Below are positions 6,844 through 43,899 of a DNA stretch of 64,000 bases, one piece after another. Position 1 is the first letter of the stretch. Each line of letters begins with the position of its first letter. Below the pieces are notes generated by a model. It had not been told where the DNA came from. It was given only the letters and a program-made list of their open reading frames with translations, and ran no database searches. Where the stretch lies: IMG/VR virus record IMGVR_UViG_3300025646_005470; one strand, given 5' to 3'. Both the position numbers and the translations under genes were made by a program. This DNA comes from a virus.

Positions 6844-8323
6844 CTCCTTGTGCCAATGGCAAGTCTGTTGAGTAGTTTACAGTTACCGTGCTTCTACGCA
6901 TATATTGTTTCCATGCATCTGAACCACTTTCTCTACCTCCGCCAGTGTGTTTTTCACCGCCAAAGGCTCCGCCAATTTCAGCCCCACTAGGACCAATATT
7001 AACATTTACTATACCACAATCTGATCCATTTGCTCCAATAAACAATTCTGATTCTTGTAGATCTTTTGTAAAGATGCAACTACTTAAACCTTGTGGTACA
7101 TTGTTGTTAATTGCTATTGCTTCTGCTAGTTCATCATATGGTATAATGTATAGCAAAGGTGCAAATGTTTCTGTTTTTGTAATTTCTTCTGCTTTAGTTA
7201 ATTCAACTATTGCTGGTGTTACATAAACACCATCACGTTCTAATCTTATGCCACCTGTTACTGTGCCAACTCCTTGTTGTTCACATTGTGCAATTGTATC
7301 TTTCATGTTTTCATATGCTTGTTCACTTACAAGTGGACCTACCAATACATTTGGATCTAAAGGATCACCAACTGTAATTTTTGCATAATATTTTTTAAGC
7401 ATTTTTACCAGTTGTTCATGTATTGATCTATGCACAATAACTCTACGTAAAGTTGTACATCTTTGACCTGCTGTGCCTACAGCACTAAACAATATAGCTC
7501 TAATTGCCAATTTCATGTCTGCATTTGGTGTAACTATCATTGCATTGTTGCCACCAAGTTCCATCAACACTCTGCCAAATCTTTCAGTGACTCTTTTGCC
7601 CAATGCTTGACCCATTGCTGTTGATCCTGTTAAACTTACAAGATTAACGTGTTTATCATCTGCTAACCATTCTGCAGGTTCATTAGCACCTATAACTAAT
7701 TCTAAAATATTTTGTGCTTGTGGTATACCAGAACGTTCAACTGCTTTTTTAAATATTGCTTCACAGGCAAATGATACTAAAGGTGTTTTAGGTGATGGTT
7801 TCCAAAGTGTTGCATTGCCACATACTGTTGCAATAGCAAAATTCCAACTCCATACTGCTACAGGAAAATTAAATGCTGAAACAACTCCAACCACTCCTAG
7901 TGGATTCCATATTTCTTGCATACGATGTCCAGGTCGTTCGCTGGGCATTGTTAATCCGTATAACTGTCTTGATAGTCCAACTGCAAAGTCGCAGATGTCA
8001 ATCATTTCCTGAACTTCACCTAGACCTTCTTGTAGAATTTTACCATTTTCAATAGTAACCAATCTACCAAGTTCGTTTTTGTACTTACGAAGTTCTTCAC
8101 CAAATAGTCTAATAACTTCACCACGTTGTGGTGCTGGTACAGTTCGCCATTCTATTTGAGCTTGTTTTAAATTTAGTACTTTTGCTTCATATTCTTGTCT
8201 TGTAGAATATTTCACATTGGCAATTTTAGTAGCATCAATTGGTGATGTTACAGAATTACCATTTGGTACTGTATATAAATTTTTGTCTATGCCAATAGCA
8301 TCAAGTATCTGTTGTGCATTCAT
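6827..8323 (-). CDS. Aldehyde dehydrogenase, ALDH7/antiquitin-like (piperideine-6-carboxylate dehydrogenase family)
   Basis: [63 protein letters not shown]. Confidence 0.92.
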
Positions 8324-8326
8324 AAA

Positions 8327-8545
8327 TTATTTTTTAAAATATTTTTCAATAACTTCTAATTGATCATGATATTTTGCAATAACTTCTAGTTCTTTTTCTA
8401 CTGCTTCTAAAATATCTGGATGCTCACCAACACCCGCCGCATTTGAAAGATATACTTCAACGTTCATTGTGTGTTTAGCAATATGTCCTTTTGCATGTTC
8501 TACTATTGCGTCTAACATATTTTCTCTACTATATAATCCTGCCAT
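8327..8545 (-). CDS. Small conserved-looking hypothetical phage protein
   Basis: 72 aa; N..GVGEHPDI motif. Confidence 0.6.
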   Translation of the reverse strand: MAGLYSRENMLDAIVEHAKGHIAKHTMNVEVYLSNAAGVGEHPDILEAVEKELEVIAKYHDQLEVIEKYFKK

Positions 8546-16411: not shown

Positions 16412-16756
16412 TTAACCCCTTCTTGTTTTCTTTTTTGGAGAAATACCAAATTCTTCCATATCACGTTCACGTCTTAGTTTTGCCGCTCTACGTATTGCAC
16501 GTTTTTTATCTTCACGTTTTACAAAAGAAGGTTTTGAATAGTATCTTCTATCACGAAGTTCTTGCATTACTCCTTCTTTTAATAACATTTTTTTAAGTTT
16601 ACGCATGGCACGTTCAACATTGTTATCTACAACTGCTACTGCCATTCCTGGTAACTTTGGAGGACGTGGTTTTCTATTATCTTTTCCATCACGTTTTGTA
16701 TAGCCAATATCAAATGACTTTACATCATATTTTTGTCTAGGTTTTGAAGTTTTCAT
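16412..16756 (-). CDS. rpsU: Ribosomal protein bS21 with N-terminal extension
   Basis: VVDNNVERAMRKLKK...EGVMQELRDRRYYSKPS. Confidence 0.9.
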   Translation of the reverse strand: MKTSKPRQKYDVKSFDIGYTKRDGKDNRKPRPPKLPGMAVAVVDNNVERAMRKLKKMLLKEGVMQELRDRRYYSKPSFVKREDKKRAIRRAAKLRRERDMEEFGISPKKKTRRG

Positions 16757-16788: not shown

Positions 16789-17343
16789 TCAACTCTTTTT
16801 TACATCACTATCTTTAGTGATAACTGCAAGGATTTTATTTCCTAGTTGTTTTGGAGAAGAATCAAACTTAGTATTATTCAGTTTTTTCATAATCATATTT
16901 ACTTGATCAATAAACATTTGACCATTTGGTATTTCTCTACCTTTTAGTTTCATTACTAATTTAACTTTATCTCCATCATCAATAAACTCTTGAGCTTTTT
17001 TAAGTTTTACATTAAGATCATGAACATCAATATTTGGCCTAAACTGTAGTTCACGTAATTCTACTCTATTTTGTCTTTCAAGTTTTTTCTTTTGCTTTTC
17101 TTTCTTTTGTTGTTCATAGTTCCATTTACTAAATTCTTGAATTTTACAAACAGGTGGATCTGCCTTAACTGTTGTACAAATTAAATCTAAACCTAATTCT
17201 TTGGCTTTTATTAGAGCAGTTCTACTATCAACTATTCCAATAAAAGCACCATTAGGGTCAATTAATCTAACTTGAGGGAATGTTATTGCTGAATTCAACA
17301 ACACACTTGGCTGAGCAAACTTATTGCGGAATGGTTTTTTCAC
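16789..17343 (-). CDS. infC: Translation initiation factor IF-3
   Basis: VRLIDPNG, GLDL, DPPVCKI, ELQFRPNIDVHD, GDKVKL, KGRE. Confidence 0.92.
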   Translation of the reverse strand: MKKPFRNKFAQPSVLLNSAITFPQVRLIDPNGAFIGIVDSRTALIKAKELGLDLICTTVKADPPVCKIQEFSKWNYEQQKKEKQKKKLERQNRVELRELQFRPNIDVHDLNVKLKKAQEFIDDGDKVKLVMKLKGREIPNGQMFIDQVNMIMKKLNNTKFDSSPKQLGNKILAVITKDSDVKKS

Positions 17344-18605
17344 TATGCTCCGTTTTTCTCCGCTTTGGTTTTATAAATTAGCATTGGTTGTTTTTCTTCT
17401 GAAATAACTTTATCACTAATTATAATTCGTTCAACACCTTGTGATTTAAGTGTTGGTAACTCATATTGTAATTGCAATAATATCTTTTCAAGCACAGAAC
17501 GTAAACCTCTTGCACCAATTTCTTTTTTAAGTGCTTCGCTGGCTACACAATCAATTGCTTCATCTGTAAACTCTAATTTAACACCATCTAATTTAAACAT
17601 TTTTTCAAACTGTTTTAGCACTGCATTTTTTGGCTTGACTAAAACTTGTTTTAAATCATCGTGTGTTAGATTATGACAAGCAACCACAACAGGTAATCTA
17701 CCTACCATTTCAGGTATTAAACCAAACTTAACAACATCATCTGGTTGTACTTTAGCAAGTATTTGATCTGTTTCTTCTTTGTTTTCAAAGTTTGACATAA
17801 ATCCCATAGATGAGTTTACATTTAATCTACGTTTGACAATTTCATCTAATCCAACAAATGCTCCGCCGCATACAAATAATATATTTGTAGTATCAACTTC
17901 AATCATTTCTTGTTGTGGATGTTTTCTACCGCCTTGTGGTGGAACTCTCACTACTGTACCTTCAAGTAACTTTAAAAGTGCTTGTTGCACACCCTCACCT
18001 GATACATCTCTTGTGATTGATGTATTTTCTGATTTTCTAGATTTTTTATCTATTTCATCAATGTACACAATACCTCTTTCAGCACGTTCAACATCAAAGT
18101 CACAACTTTGTAAAAGTCTTAGAATAATATTTTCTACATCATCACCAACATAACCACTTTCAGTCAGTGTTGTTGCATCCGCCTGGGCAAATGGCACATC
18201 TAAATAATCTGCAATTTTTTTAGCAAGTAATGTTTTACCGCAACCTGAAGGCCCAACTAGTAACACATTTGATTTTTCTAATTCAACACCATCTACAACA
18301 GGATGATTTAATCTTTTATAGTGATTATATACAGCAACACTTAGAACTTTTTTTGCTTGATCTTGACCAATAACATGGTCGTCTAAATGTAATTTTAATT
18401 CATCTGGTACAATTGTTTTTAGTGCTGTATTTACTTCACCTGTTTTCTTTTGATTAATATCATTTTCTTCTAAAATTGAATAACACAAATCTACGCACTC
18501 ATTACAAATATAAACTTTAGGTCCTGCAATAAGTTTCCTTACTTTAGCTCTTTCTTTTCCACAAAAAGAACAAGAGTATGAATCATCTTTTTTCTTGGTT
18601 GCCAT
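17343..18605 (-). CDS. clpX: ATP-dependent Clp protease ATPase subunit ClpX
   Basis: CSFCGK...CNEC zinc domain, [41 protein letters not shown]. Confidence 0.97.
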
Positions 18606-21436: not shown

Positions 21437-21479
21437 CTAACGGCAGAGTGTTTAGTGAGGGTTGACGTTTAGTCCTCAT
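21437..21479 (-). promoter_or_regulatory. Candidate preQ1-I-like riboswitch/pseudoknot in queD leader
   Basis: UGAGG-ACUAAACGUCAAC-CCUCA stem-loop; loop AACG can pair with downstream CGUU just before SD AGGAG. Confidence 0.4.
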
Positions 21480-21507
21480 ATGCAAAGTGCGTTGTAGCAT
21501 AGTGTTT

Positions 21508-21536
21508 ATAATACACTAAACAACGCACCTTGTCAA
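21508..21536 (-). promoter_or_regulatory. Sigma70-type promoter of queD
   Basis: TTGACA-17 nt-TATTAT, overlaid by an inverted repeat GTGCGTTG...CAACGCAC. Confidence 0.65.
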
Positions 21537-21541
21537 GAAGA

Positions 21542-21745
21542 TTACTTATGTGGGTTAAAATCCTTTGATATTTGGGATTCAGAACCCTTAAAGTAGTGTT
21601 TTGATGGTTCGTAGGATAACCATCTTTTAAATCGCTTCACACGATCCGACTGGCCGGCCGGATTTTTTAATGACCGTTGCTGTTTGTTAAAAACAGCATT
21701 AAGCATTAGGATCCCGTCGCCCATGGATCTAAAAATCTTTTCCAT
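21542..21745 (-). CDS. Small hypothetical protein
   Basis: MEKIFRSMGDGILMLNAVF...; GGAGA SD before ATG. Confidence 0.5.
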   Translation of the reverse strand: MEKIFRSMGDGILMLNAVFNKQQRSLKNPAGQSDRVKRFKRWLSYEPSKHYFKGSESQISKDFNPHK

Positions 21746-21842
21746 AGACTTCTCCAAATTGTTAAGTTAGGATCGCTTACCGTCTTTTGATGTAATCTGA
21801 GGCGTTAGGCTTTCTACCAATTGTACTTATATTTTTAGTGGT

Positions 21843-21870
21843 AAAAGAAGCCCGTTATAGGCTTCTTTTT
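21843..21870. terminator. Bidirectional-looking terminator
   Basis: AAAAGAAGCC-CGTTATA-GGCTTCTTTT. Confidence 0.7.
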
Positions 21871-22042
21871 AATTATAAAATTTTTGATATAATGAACGAT
21901 ATCTTCCACCGTTGAACTGACCTCTGTCAAGCTCACGTTGGCGTCTTTCAAGATCATAATGATCTTGAGATTGTGCTAGATACTGCTCTTGCCAGTTTGT
22001 TGCTGACTTACCAAATAATGCGTTTAAAATTTGTCTAATCAT
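21869..22042 (-). CDS. Small protein, DUF3563-like (57 aa; not in ORF track)
   Basis: MIRQILNALFGKSATNWQEQYLAQSQDHYDLERRQRELDRGQFNGGRYRSLYQKFYN. Confidence 0.65.
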   Translation of the reverse strand: MIRQILNALFGKSATNWQEQYLAQSQDHYDLERRQRELDRGQFNGGRYRSLYQKFYN

Positions 22043-22188
22043 TATGGTCTAAGTCCTTTCTTTAGTTGCTCATATGCGTACTGTGGATTGTTTCTATATT
22101 CTGTTGTTGCTAGTATCCATAAAGGATCACTACCTTTTTCTTCACTAGGTGCAAAAAATATATCAAACACTCTTTTTAGTTTTTTCAT
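22042..22188 (-). CDS. Small hypothetical protein (48 aa; not in track)
   Basis: MKKLKRVFDIFFAPSEEKGSDPLWILATTEYRNNPQYAYEQLKKGLRP; TAATG coupling to next gene. Confidence 0.6.
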   Translation of the reverse strand: MKKLKRVFDIFFAPSEEKGSDPLWILATTEYRNNPQYAYEQLKKGLRP

Positions 22189-22254
22189 CTACTTCTTTCC
22201 TTGCTTTTTGGGTTTACTAAGTTCTACCCATTCTTCGTATGTGTAAGGCCACAT
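22189..22254 (-). CDS. 21-aa peptide MWPYTYEEW... (not in track)
   Basis: AAGGAG SD upstream, TATAAATA at 22309..22316; TAG followed directly by the next ATG. Confidence 0.55.
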   Translation of the reverse strand: MWPYTYEEWVELSKPKKQGKK

Positions 22255-22386
22255 GTTAATTCTCCTTAATGTTAAGTTAAATATCTTTTGGAATTTTATT
22301 ACCGCAGATATTTATATCTATTATACAGCAAAAAATGTAAATTTTAAGTGTTTTTACAGCAGGTTAGATATGCAGTTTTGCTACAA

Positions 22387-22809
22387 CTACTCTTGAACTT
22401 TTATGCCCATAGAACGACATGATCCTTCTACCTGTGCCATTGCTTGTTCTACAGTAAAAGCATTCATGTCTTCCATTTTGTCTTCAGCAATTTTTCTAAT
22501 CTGATCTTTAGTAATTTGTTTGATAGTAGATCTACCTGGAGTTCTACCACCTTTTGATAACCCAACTGCTTTTAATATATAATATGTAACAGGTGGTTTC
22601 TTAAGAACAAAAGAAAAACTTTTGTCTTTATAAACACTAATCAAACATGGAATAGGACCTTCCATGCCTTTTGTTTTATCGTTGAACTGTTTACAGAATT
22701 CCATGATCTGTATACCACGTTGTCCAAGAGCTGGTCCTACAGGTGGAGCAGGTTTTGCCTGTCCGGCTTCTATTACTAATTTTAAAGTCCCAATGACTTC
22801 TTTAGCCAT
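22387..22809 (-). CDS. rplK: Ribosomal protein uL11
   Basis: [41 protein letters not shown]...EGSCRSMGI; start set at ATG 22809. Confidence 0.96.
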
Positions 22810-22822
22810 AAACCTCCGTTTG

Positions 22823-23062
22823 TTATGCTGATTCGTTATTTGATTCAGTAGTTGCTTCACCTAAAACTTTTAAGTGTGTTGCAACAGGCTTGCCTTTGTG
22901 TTCAGCAACAGTATATTCCATTGCTTGACCTTGATCAATTTTTGTTATGCCAGCATCTTTAAATGCAGAAACATGAACAAACACATCATTGCCGCCTTCA
23001 TCTGGTACTATGAAGCCAAATCCTTTTGCCGCATTATACCATTTTAATTTACCTGTACTCAT
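22823..23062 (-). CDS. Cold-shock protein (CspA family)
   Basis: [15 protein letters not shown] (RNP1), DVFVHVSAF (RNP2). Confidence 0.95.
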
Positions 23063-23292: not shown

Positions 23293-23318
23293 TATATACT
23301 AACTTTATTTATAGTTTC

Positions 23319-23729
23319 CTATATCTTTCCAGCTTCCGTTAACTTTGTACGGTTTTTAAGATGTTGTTCTTGAACATCATCTTTGCTTTGTCCATTATAT
23401 AATACTGCGTAGCCTTCGTCAACCATTTTTTTATTAATGGTTGTATTTTCCCAGACTAGTTCTCCTAGTATACGGCCAAATTTTCCTGTTGCATCTTTGT
23501 GTGTTCTAAGTACTGCCATACTACCGGTTGGATAATGGTCTTTTAAATATTTTTTAGATAATAGTCCAAAACGTTTTTCTTCTAGATCTCTAGTTCTTGA
23601 TTCGGGAGTATCTATTCCTAATAATCGTACACGTTCTTTGTGTCTCCATATTCCAAATCCTAAATCAATATCTACATCAACAGTATCACCGTCTATTACT
23701 CTTAATATTTTACAACTATATTCGTGCAT
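23319..23729 (-). CDS. Thermonuclease (SNase-like) protein
   Basis: RVIDGDTVDVDIDLGF, RLLGIDTPESRT, GKFGRILG. Confidence 0.88.
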   Translation of the reverse strand: MHEYSCKILRVIDGDTVDVDIDLGFGIWRHKERVRLLGIDTPESRTRDLEEKRFGLLSKKYLKDHYPTGSMAVLRTHKDATGKFGRILGELVWENTTINKKMVDEGYAVLYNGQSKDDVQEQHLKNRTKLTEAGKI

Positions 23730-24453
23730 TTCTTTTTATGTTTCCTATTGTTTTTTTTATACTTTTGTTATATTCATGTTTTGCTTTTTTTAAATCAACT
23801 GTATTTAGTTGAGCTACAATATAATATACTGTTTGATCGCTCAAATTACGTGCTGTAAAATAATTTCCTGAATCAAGTTGAATTGCTGATCCAGATTCAG
23901 TTGGAATTTTACCAATGTAATCTTTATCTTTTAGTTTAGTTTTGTCCATTGGGTTTGGATTAAACATAACAACATCATAGTACTGTGGACTATTAAGTAA
24001 AAACTTTATTACATTAAAACTATGATGGTCAGTTTCTTTATTTTTATGAAGCTCAATATGTCCTTGAGGCTCTAGTGCCATTATCTCTATTTTTTCTTTT
24101 GACCCAAAATTATAATCTTTTGAAAAAACTTCTCTAAACCATTTTGTCATAGCAGGGCAACACTCTATTACTTTTTCATTCCATTCGCCATCATATGCTA
24201 TAATACTTTTCCAACCATGGCTGTATTCATTTTTATGTGGTTGAAAAAGATTAAATTTATCTAATCCTTTTATTTCATTTTCCCAAGTTTGCCAACTGTA
24301 GCCAATATCTAATTCAATCCAAGGAAAATTTTTAATTAAATTTTCATAATCATCTGATTCATTTATTTCGATAATTTTTTGAATCTTATAATGCTCTCTA
24401 TTAATTAATGGAAGAGACCAGATATCATTTCCTAGATAATCAGGGATAAACAT
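23716..24453 (-). CDS. Asp/Asn beta-hydroxylase-like (2OG-Fe) fold protein, metal ligands look degenerate
   Basis: GWKS, CPAMTKW, IMALEPQGHIELH; HxD reads HKN. Confidence 0.45.
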   Translation of the reverse strand: MFIPDYLGNDIWSLPLINREHYKIQKIIEINESDDYENLIKNFPWIELDIGYSWQTWENEIKGLDKFNLFQPHKNEYSHGWKSIIAYDGEWNEKVIECCPAMTKWFREVFSKDYNFGSKEKIEIMALEPQGHIELHKNKETDHHSFNVIKFLLNSPQYYDVVMFNPNPMDKTKLKDKDYIGKIPTESGSAIQLDSGNYFTARNLSDQTVYYIVAQLNTVDLKKAKHEYNKSIKKTIGNIKRNARI

Positions 24454-40169: not shown

Positions 40170-40184
40170 ATAACTTTTATTATA

Positions 40185-40685
40185 TTATTTTTTATTCTTT
40201 GCAATTATATCTGCAAACTGTACTATTTTAGCAAATTCTGGATCTTTTTGCAACTTTTTTATTGATCCTGAAATTTCTTTGTCAACATTTTTCATCATAT
40301 CTTTTGCTTGATCTTTAGATGCTTGTTGTGTACTTTGTGTTCCTTGAGTTTTTTCTGTACCTGTAGTTGTTTTTGGTGCAACTGTTGTATTACCTTTGGT
40401 ATTTCCTGCAGATGCTGTATTCTTTGATACTGTTTTACTTGTATATTCATCAAGCAAATCTTTAACCACATCGTCTAATTGATCATATCCAGATAACAAA
40501 ATACGTTTTGCACTTTCTGGATCTTCTTCGTCAACTGCTTTGGCTAGATTCATGTAATCTTTAAGTCCTAGTGGTTCTGTTAATGATTTAACAACACTTG
40601 CTGGCATATGAACTAGTTTACTAATTCGATTAGTAAATTGTTTTGGATCATCCATAGTGTTTAAAATATCATCTTTTAAGCTCAT
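40185..40685 (-). CDS. Hypothetical protein
   Basis: 166 aa ORF. Confidence 0.55.
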   Translation of the reverse strand: MSLKDDILNTMDDPKQFTNRISKLVHMPASVVKSLTEPLGLKDYMNLAKAVDEEDPESAKRILLSGYDQLDDVVKDLLDEYTSKTVSKNTASAGNTKGNTTVAPKTTTGTEKTQGTQSTQQASKDQAKDMMKNVDKEISGSIKKLQKDPEFAKIVQFADIIAKNKK

Positions 40686-43649: not shown

Positions 43650-43899
43650 TTGTGCTGTTTAACCTTCTGATTCCACGTTCAAATTTTGCAGGATCTGAAC
43701 TTTTAATGCTGTTGATTAATCTTCTAGATAATTCACCAGCAGTGTTTTCATCATATGATTCATACAGCATATCGATTAGATTGAGAGCAGATGATATAAC
43801 ATGACTAGCACGTGATTCTATCAGTGCCTCTCTATTGCTTTGAGGTACTGATTGACTAATTTCTTCTAATATTGATCTAGTATGTCTTTTCATTGTCAT
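43630..43899 (-). CDS. Hypothetical protein
   Basis: 89 aa; TATAAATA at 43924..43931. Confidence 0.6.
   Translation of the reverse strand: MTMKRHTRSILEEISQSVPQSNREALIESRASHVISSALNLIDMLYESYDENTAGELSRRLINSIKSSDPAKFERGIRRLNSTNETDGN

Follow-up and report, generated by a model that had tools for sequence, protein, structure and literature searches.

Ribosomal genes have long been regarded as the dividing line between cells and viruses, and the ribosomal proteins known from viruses are mostly small and loosely bound (bS21, bL12, bL31 and bL33). Protein uL11 is a conserved part of the docking site for every translational GTPase and RelA. We analyzed a 64-kb stretch of the IMG/VR record IMGVR_UViG_3300025646_005470 (hereafter the window) in which a gene for this protein lies among viral genes, and asked whether it truly belongs to a phage, how long it has been kept there, and what use the phage may make of it.

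A complete uL11 gene in a giant marine phage

A preliminary description of this DNA had reported a full-length, orphan L11 without nusG or rplA, and the searches confirmed each part of that statement. The product scores 183.3 bits against TIGR01632, the L11_bact equivalog (cut-off 141.85), covering model positions 1-139 of 140, and both Pfam L11 domains are matched at full length with 89.8 and 84.7 bits (PF03946, 1-58/58; PF00298, 1-69/69), so that the N-terminal factor-facing domain and the C-terminal rRNA-binding domain are both present. Sequence matches extend to 48 distinct solved uL11 chains (best E = 3e-42), and an AlphaFold model of the protein (pLDDT 79.8) superimposes on solved L11 chains with TM scores of 0.86-0.91 over 130-141 columns, including 0.90 to 2nxn_B. 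Identity to uL11 of E. coli (b3983) is about 45%. A tblastn search with E. coli NusG, L1 and L10 found no match to nusG, rplA or rplJ anywhere in the 64 kb, while rplA adjoins rplK in all 80 cellular loci fetched. The mechanically called open reading frame is longer than the gene, reaching up to a GTG at 22860; we take the ATG at 22809 as the real start because it lies 3 nt downstream of a GGAGG and because all homologues begin with MAKE. The phage uL11 has a strong ribosome-binding site of its own, and a GGAG(G)-type element is placed identically in 8 of 8 loci compared.

An alignment of 80 cellular uL11 proteins has 53 columns conserved to 90% or more; the window protein keeps 49 of them, and its four substitutions are conservative. 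The proline-rich PxPPxGPxLG motif is present and Lys39 is retained. Mature residue 3 is Glu, and the preliminary description was correct on both this residue and the preserved motif; its treatment of Glu-3 as a meaningful departure from the PrmA-methylated Lys did not stand, as Glu is found in 28 of 80 named cellular uL11 proteins. For the same reason we rejected Glu-3 as a phage adaptation for avoiding PrmA. Four features are fixed in the phage clade and rare in cells (E. coli mature numbering): Asn18Lys, an N-domain loop one residue shorter, Gln127 and Cys132. The first of these adjoins the proline motif and occurs in 27 of 28 phage sequences compared with 2 of 80 cellular ones.

The surrounding genome is that of a virus. 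Nearly all genes of the window lie on one strand at 33% GC, and the GC and GC3 of the uL11 gene match those of its neighbors and of the remainder of the genome. Virion structural proteins related to those of PA5oct- and Rak2-like jumbo phages are encoded, among them a 1104-aa protein whose N-terminus matches both groups, together with an endolysin, UvsX, a gp32-type SSB, a primase, a DnaB-type helicase, RNR and three tRNAs. Judged by this gene content, the source is a genuine T4-like giant marine phage.

A search of 5.8 billion proteins returned 27 clusters at 71-94% identity to the window protein, which come from about 170 contigs in ENA, JGI, Tara and Logan assemblies; below this group there is a gap, with all other matches at or under 66%. 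Every locus examined has the order SNase - (EF-G or a 245-aa protein of unknown function) - Smr - CSD - uL11 ... QueD ... ClpX - IF-3 - S21, where CSD is a cold-shock-domain protein. One relative, IMGVR_UViG_3300020477_000990 (the record of locus L098), is complete at 328,149 bp, with direct terminal repeats and a CheckV rating of 100%. The shared synteny on some 170 contigs and the existence of this complete genome exclude chimerism and contamination for the lineage; the preliminary description had raised the possibility of a chimeric locus, and with the gene composition matching that of the phage we rejected it. The best explanation of the locus is that the phage has a functional ribosomal uL11 of its own.

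The Smr-CSD-uL11 unit and its promoter motif

The grouping of uL11 with Smr and CspA-like genes, also proposed from the first inspection, is real: uL11 is the last of three genes on the same strand, after Smr and CSD (Table 1). The Smr and CSD genes overlap by 4 nt (ATGA). The CSD protein carries KGFGFI and VFVHV motifs, and its gene is directly upstream of uL11 in every clade A locus examined, clade A being the phage lineage to which the window belongs. In the complete relative, two tandem CSD matches lie between Smr and uL11 (46% and 68% identical to the window CSD), where the window has one. The Smr gene is conserved in position in all clade A loci examined, and its product contains LDLHG and TGQG motifs, in keeping with the LDLHG and TGxG loops of Smr nucleases. 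Its scores against the SmrA, SmrB and MutS2 equivalogs are 16-20 bits, far under the cut-offs, and as a bare 77-aa domain it is without the SmrB-type N-terminal extension that docks on collided ribosomes. On these features it may work like an Smr nuclease, without being an SmrB orthologue.

Table 1. Positions of the features discussed, in the window and in related phage records.
Record	Feature	Coordinates	Strand	Support or remark
Window	RimK-family alpha-L-glutamate ligase, 295 aa	14230..15117	(-)	TIGR00768, 224 bits (cut-off 143.4)
Window	rpsU (bS21), N-terminally extended	16412-16756	(-)	TIGR00030, 56.7 bits
Window	infC (IF-3)	16789-17343	(-)	TIGR00168, 144.9 bits
Window	ClpX	17343-18605		
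Window	stretch between uL11 and queD, about 950 nt	21437-22386	(-)	ORFs of only 48, 57 and 71 aa
Window	conserved TATAAATA block 3' of uL11	22309-22316		
Window	rplK-like gene, bacterial-type uL11, 140 aa	22387..22809	(-)	TIGR01632, Pfam, predicted fold, dN/dS
Window	Shine-Dalgarno GGAGG, 3 nt before uL11 ATG	22813..22817	(-)	read from sequence
Window	cold-shock-domain protein (CspA/CspE-like), 79 aa	22823..23062	(-)	Pfam CSD, 72.2 bits; phrog_729 cold shock protein
Window	stand-alone Smr-domain protein, 77 aa	23059..23292	(-)	Pfam Smr PF01713, 38.5 bits (cut-off 25.7)
Window	T4-late-type promoter motif TATAAATA	23306..23313	(-)	13 nt before Smr ATG
Window	SNase-like endonuclease, 136 aa	23319..23729	(-)	Pfam SNase, 57.4 bits; phrog_452 endonuclease, 120.9 bits
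Window	245-aa gene	23716-24453	(-)	no Pfam or PHROG match; conserved in L005, L006
328-kb relative (G003)	MazG	40179-40388		
328-kb relative (G003)	bL12	141459-141824		
328-kb relative (G003)	EF-G	266013-268067		
328-kb relative (G003)	bS21	275498-275662		
L098	two tandem CSD matches	7474-7930		between Smr and uL11
L108	clade B uL11	7992-8426	(+)	orphan gene
L113	clade B uL11	7992-8420	(+)	orphan gene

A copy of TATAAATA ahead of the Smr gene presumably marks the start of the Smr-CSD-uL11 transcript. The motif stands at the head of the unit in 10 of 11 loci (in the remaining one, L012, it was not located), preceding Smr in the window, L005-L007, L010 and L011, and preceding EF-G in L001-L004, which belong to a sister sub-clade; the bases around the conserved motif have diverged between loci. 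Across the whole window its 10 copies equal the 10 expected, so there is no overall excess. Eight of the 10 are on the coding strand, and with five of those eight the intergenic DNA upstream of genes, 2.2 kb in total, is enriched about 20-fold; among these five, one copy precedes a virion protein gene. More generally, no 8-mer is more enriched in the intergenic DNA upstream of genes than NATAAATA (ATAAATAA 17-fold, TATAAATA 20-fold), which usually lies 5-26 nt ahead of a start codon, as at the genes starting at 43899, 39397, 27275, 23292 and 13842 on the minus strand. It probably represents the main promoter class of this phage, one that resembles T4 late promoters. In T4, TATAAATA is the late-promoter consensus, and late timing of the unit is thus an analogy. 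Downstream of uL11 no convincing intrinsic terminator was found (z-score 0.24).

The stretch that separates uL11 from queD has few coding features; its 57-aa ORF matches Pfam DUF3563 (32.7 bits), and no RNA family came up there in a permissive Rfam scan. On the other side, the SNase gene is a conserved upstream neighbor that is probably carried on a separate transcript; it is syntenic in most relatives, and one contig, L096/L011, gave no SNase match. Beyond it, the 245-aa gene sits where the sister sub-clade has EF-G, a position at which the window's own sub-clade has none. We rejected the idea that it is a decayed EF-G, as it has no similarity to EF-G. Further translation genes of the window are IF-3 and bS21, encoded about 5 kb from uL11 in an order identical in L002, and a RimK-family ligase, which scores far below the cut-off of the S6-specific equivalog NF007764 (151 bits against 331).

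Age, origin and relatives of the phage gene

Quick trees, FastTree trees and careful IQ-TREE trees were built. All phage sequences of the lineage form clade A, with support of 100/99, a stem of length 0.24 and no named cellular sequence inside. The nearest species-representative genomes encode uL11 that is 51-59% identical. Between the window and 12 relatives (13 loci), dN/dS is 0.04-0.16 at dS values from 0.4 to over 2, and several pairs show zero non-synonymous change at a dS of 0.13. By these ratios uL11 is under strong purifying selection across the phage clade, in which it has been passed on together with Smr and CSD, and the gene, as far as its sequence can tell, is functional and old in this lineage. 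Recent capture from a host was rejected on the identity to the nearest named genomes, the long stem and synonymous sites that are near saturation.

Clade A shares a poorly resolved part of the tree with Pelagibacteraceae and some unnamed marine lineages. The sister sub-clade has its EF-G, canonical in type (TIGR00484, 1071 bits), between SNase and Smr; this EF-G is 88-96% identical among the phages, after which identity drops to 66-69% for the best cellular matches, Pelagibacteraceae included. Tree and EF-G matches together point weakly to Pelagibacterales-like alphaproteobacteria as the host, and with such a placement and such a drop in identity both donor and host are only weakly indicated. 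One protein from a 946-bp ENA contig, P0032, is identical to the clade A sequence P0006 over its first 60 residues yet groups with Pelagibacteraceae; it is probably a phage/SAR11 assembly chimera, or a recombinant.

These results bear on the possibility that the gene is a mere passenger, either a recently acquired host gene useless to the phage or a product of chimeric assembly or cellular contamination. Databases do contain such material. The INPHARED matches (H1-H19) are mostly short fragments that carry no annotation and are labelled as phages of Listeria, Staphylococcus, Enterococcus or Salmonella, and most of the "phage" records there that match uL11 resemble short bacterial fragments. 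In IMG/VR, L013 and L115 carry uL11 of non-phage type (L115 is 46% identical to the window); nusG upstream of rplK was confirmed only in L013, which is probably cellular DNA or a prophage flank because nusG lies directly upstream. As instances of phage uL11, L013, L115 and the Listeria, Staphylococcus and Salmonella records were set aside as cellular-type or fragmentary. The sole published isolate case is itself disputed: "Microcystis phage PhiMa05 / MaAM05" (MW495066; PMC13157829), deposited as a jumbo phage, carries an rplK whose product is 49% identical to the window protein, and Chen 2026 (PMC13623518) argued that PhiMa05 is a bacterial fragment without a virion and packaging module. In PhiMa05 uL11 stands beside uL1, as in cells, whereas the window lineage bears the hallmarks of a phage and includes a complete genome with terminal repeats. 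Against a passenger also stand the phage synteny on about 170 contigs, the phage-like composition of the gene, a monophyletic clade no more than 59% identical to named genomes, and a dN/dS of about 0.1 at nearly saturated synonymous sites. We consider it extremely improbable that uL11 is a passenger in this lineage.

A second phage clade of uL11, clade B, is 56-61% identical to the window protein and comprises 40 sequences, 16 from IMG/VR contigs (L099-L114) and 24 metagenome proteins; in the careful tree it has support of 100/99 and contains no named cellular sequence. In the two clade B contexts that were read, L108 and L113, uL11 is flanked by an HNH endonuclease gene on one side and by the tail sheath and tube genes of a T4-like myovirus on the other. 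One of these two contigs, 242 kb long and rated 55% complete, also encodes bL12, bS21 and MazG. One common origin for the two clades was not rejected by an AU test (p = 0.446).

The companions of uL11 extend beyond the window. In the complete relative, a full-length bL12 together with uL11 and bS21 makes three ribosomal proteins in one phage genome, which also encodes EF-G and MazG. No EF-G was found in the rest of the window or in the partial contigs of its own sub-clade, records that are 8-24% complete. Neither uL10 nor bS6 was found in the relatives searched, including the 328-kb genome; these phages therefore do not encode a whole stalk, nor is there a phage-encoded S6 as a target for RimK. 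Thus uL11 is a recurrent gene in large T4-like phages of marine origin, usually accompanied by bL12 and bS21.

The preliminary description had seen in uL11, S21, IF-3, RimK, Smr and CspA a coordinated kit for remodeling ribosomes. The components are real, and the idea of a kit gains from the EF-G upstream in the sister sub-clade, the bL12 of the complete relative and the bL12 and bS21 of clade B. The word "coordinated" was not borne out: uL11, clpX-infC-rpsU and rimK occupy separate stretches several kb apart.

Predicted role at the ribosome and competing readings

EF-G, IF2, release factors and RelA all land on the GTPase-associated center. Within it uL11 is peripheral, and E. coli can lose the protein, so replacement of the host uL11 is plausible. 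The reading that we favor, and consider fairly probable, is an ordinary one: during infection the phage uL11 would bind helices H43/H44 of the host 23S rRNA and replace or supplement host uL11 at the GTPase-associated center, so that factor-dependent translation is kept or tuned for the phage. It would not be a machine on its own; it would act within a wider phage set, consisting of bS21, IF-3 and the RimK-family ligase in the window and of bL12 and EF-G in close relatives. The Smr nuclease and the cold-shock RNA chaperone encoded on the same transcript probably work on mRNA, either on the ribosome or close to it. This reading rests on the conservation of the protein, on the company of EF-G and bL12, and on the precedent of phage bS21 and bL12, the only two shown to be built into E. 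coli 70S ribosomes (Mizuno et al. 2019, Nat Commun 10:752, PMC6375957).

The main rival is an off-ribosome role, in which the protein would bind RNA or serve as a decoy. It might bind a phage RNA that mimics the GTPase center of 23S rRNA, titrate a host factor such as PrmA, RelA or a toxin directed at the center, or regulate phage mRNAs. The few surface changes specific to the phage clade could be read in this way, whereas the retention of both domains and of nearly all conserved columns fits ordinary ribosomal use. As a partner for such a role we looked for a phage RNA that imitates the part of 23S rRNA to which uL11 binds, and found none in the window or in two large relatives. Within the limited sensitivity of these searches, a permissive Rfam scan of the window returned 3 tRNAs only and no mimic RNA, the two conserved core motifs of the GTPase-associated center showed no excess over chance in the window, and neither the complete 328-kb genome nor the clade B record yielded such an RNA. 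Overall, an off-ribosome role appears unlikely.

Still less likely is the proposal, first raised in the preliminary description, that the phage protein damps the stringent response, replacing host uL11 specifically to stop RelA activation. The N-terminal domain of uL11 is needed for RelA activation, and the Asn18Lys change, next to the proline motif and nearly confined to the phage clade, together with the MazG of relatives, could be cited in its favor. Yet Pro21, Pro22 and the whole proline-rich motif are invariant throughout the phage clade, and Pro22 is the site of relC-type loss of RelA activation. The argument from Glu-3 fails on its frequency in cells, and MazG, as a separate gene, is uninformative on uL11. 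With the conserved columns kept as well, the sequence offers no support for a damped stringent response.

Ordinary use at the ribosome also agrees with what has been described for other viral ribosomal proteins. The bS21 of Pelagibacter phage HTVC008M and the phage bL12 of Mizuno et al. (2019) are, like the window gene, single cellular-type genes in lytic-looking marine phages, and the likeness extends to a location on a viral genome, purifying selection and a presumed replacement of the host protein. Supplementary Table 2 of that study records uL11 (Ribosomal_L11_N) for 3 uncultivated viral contigs, of which 2 are environmental, at a pN/pS of 0, against 1310 contigs for bS21, in agreement with the early remark that large-subunit core proteins such as L11 are much less common in phages than S21. 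In its text uL11 is undiscussed, and the protein is missing from its list of readily exchangeable ribosomal proteins. What goes beyond those cases is the fixed Smr-CSD-uL11 unit, the EF-G of the sister sub-clade, the bL12 elsewhere in the genome and the second uL11 lineage. Our search of the literature found no report of an Smr-CSD-uL11 phage clade, of an adjoining EF-G, of bL12 alongside or of a second uL11 lineage, and nothing usable on the exchangeability of uL11 in vivo.

The huge phages of Al-Shayeb et al. (2020, Nature 578:425, PMC7162821) encode IF-3, EF-G, S21, L7/L12, tRNAs and queuosine genes, which those authors read as interception of host translation. The main text names S4, S1, S21, L7/L12, IF-1, IF-3, EF-G, EF-Tu and EF-Ts; L11 is not among them. 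The cellular rplK, in the arrangement secE-nusG-rplKAJL-rpoBC, shares with the window gene its family, length, two-domain build and fold, and differs in its setting, since the phage gene is without nusG, rplA and rplJ and follows Smr and CSD behind a phage-type NATAAATA promoter motif. Surveys of pelagimyophages report S21 and L12 as the only ribosomal proteins, and the ALOHA virus database of Luo et al. (2020) retained "one population containing L11". The marine jumbo-phage pipeline of Weinheimer and Aylward dropped bins with more than one ribosomal protein; such a filter would remove phages with bS21 and uL11 as contamination, and the lineage is probably under-counted.

Viral uL11 had thus already been listed in the literature, and no new mechanism is demonstrated for the window gene. 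A bolder possibility, which we regard as doubtful though worth stating, is that two giant marine T4-like phage lineages refit the GTPase-associated center with uL11 and bL12, and in one sub-clade with an EF-G of their own. If this were true, infected cells would contain hybrid ribosomes with a phage-specified factor-binding stalk that favors phage protein synthesis or escapes a host shut-off or toxin, and uL11 would be no spare part, being one half of a matched, co-evolving pair of factor and landing pad. Because it has kept uL11 for so long, with EF-G and bL12 in close relatives, the clade offers a natural system for studying the factor-binding center. It raises the questions of whether a virus can re-specify that center of the ribosome, and of what it may gain by doing so.
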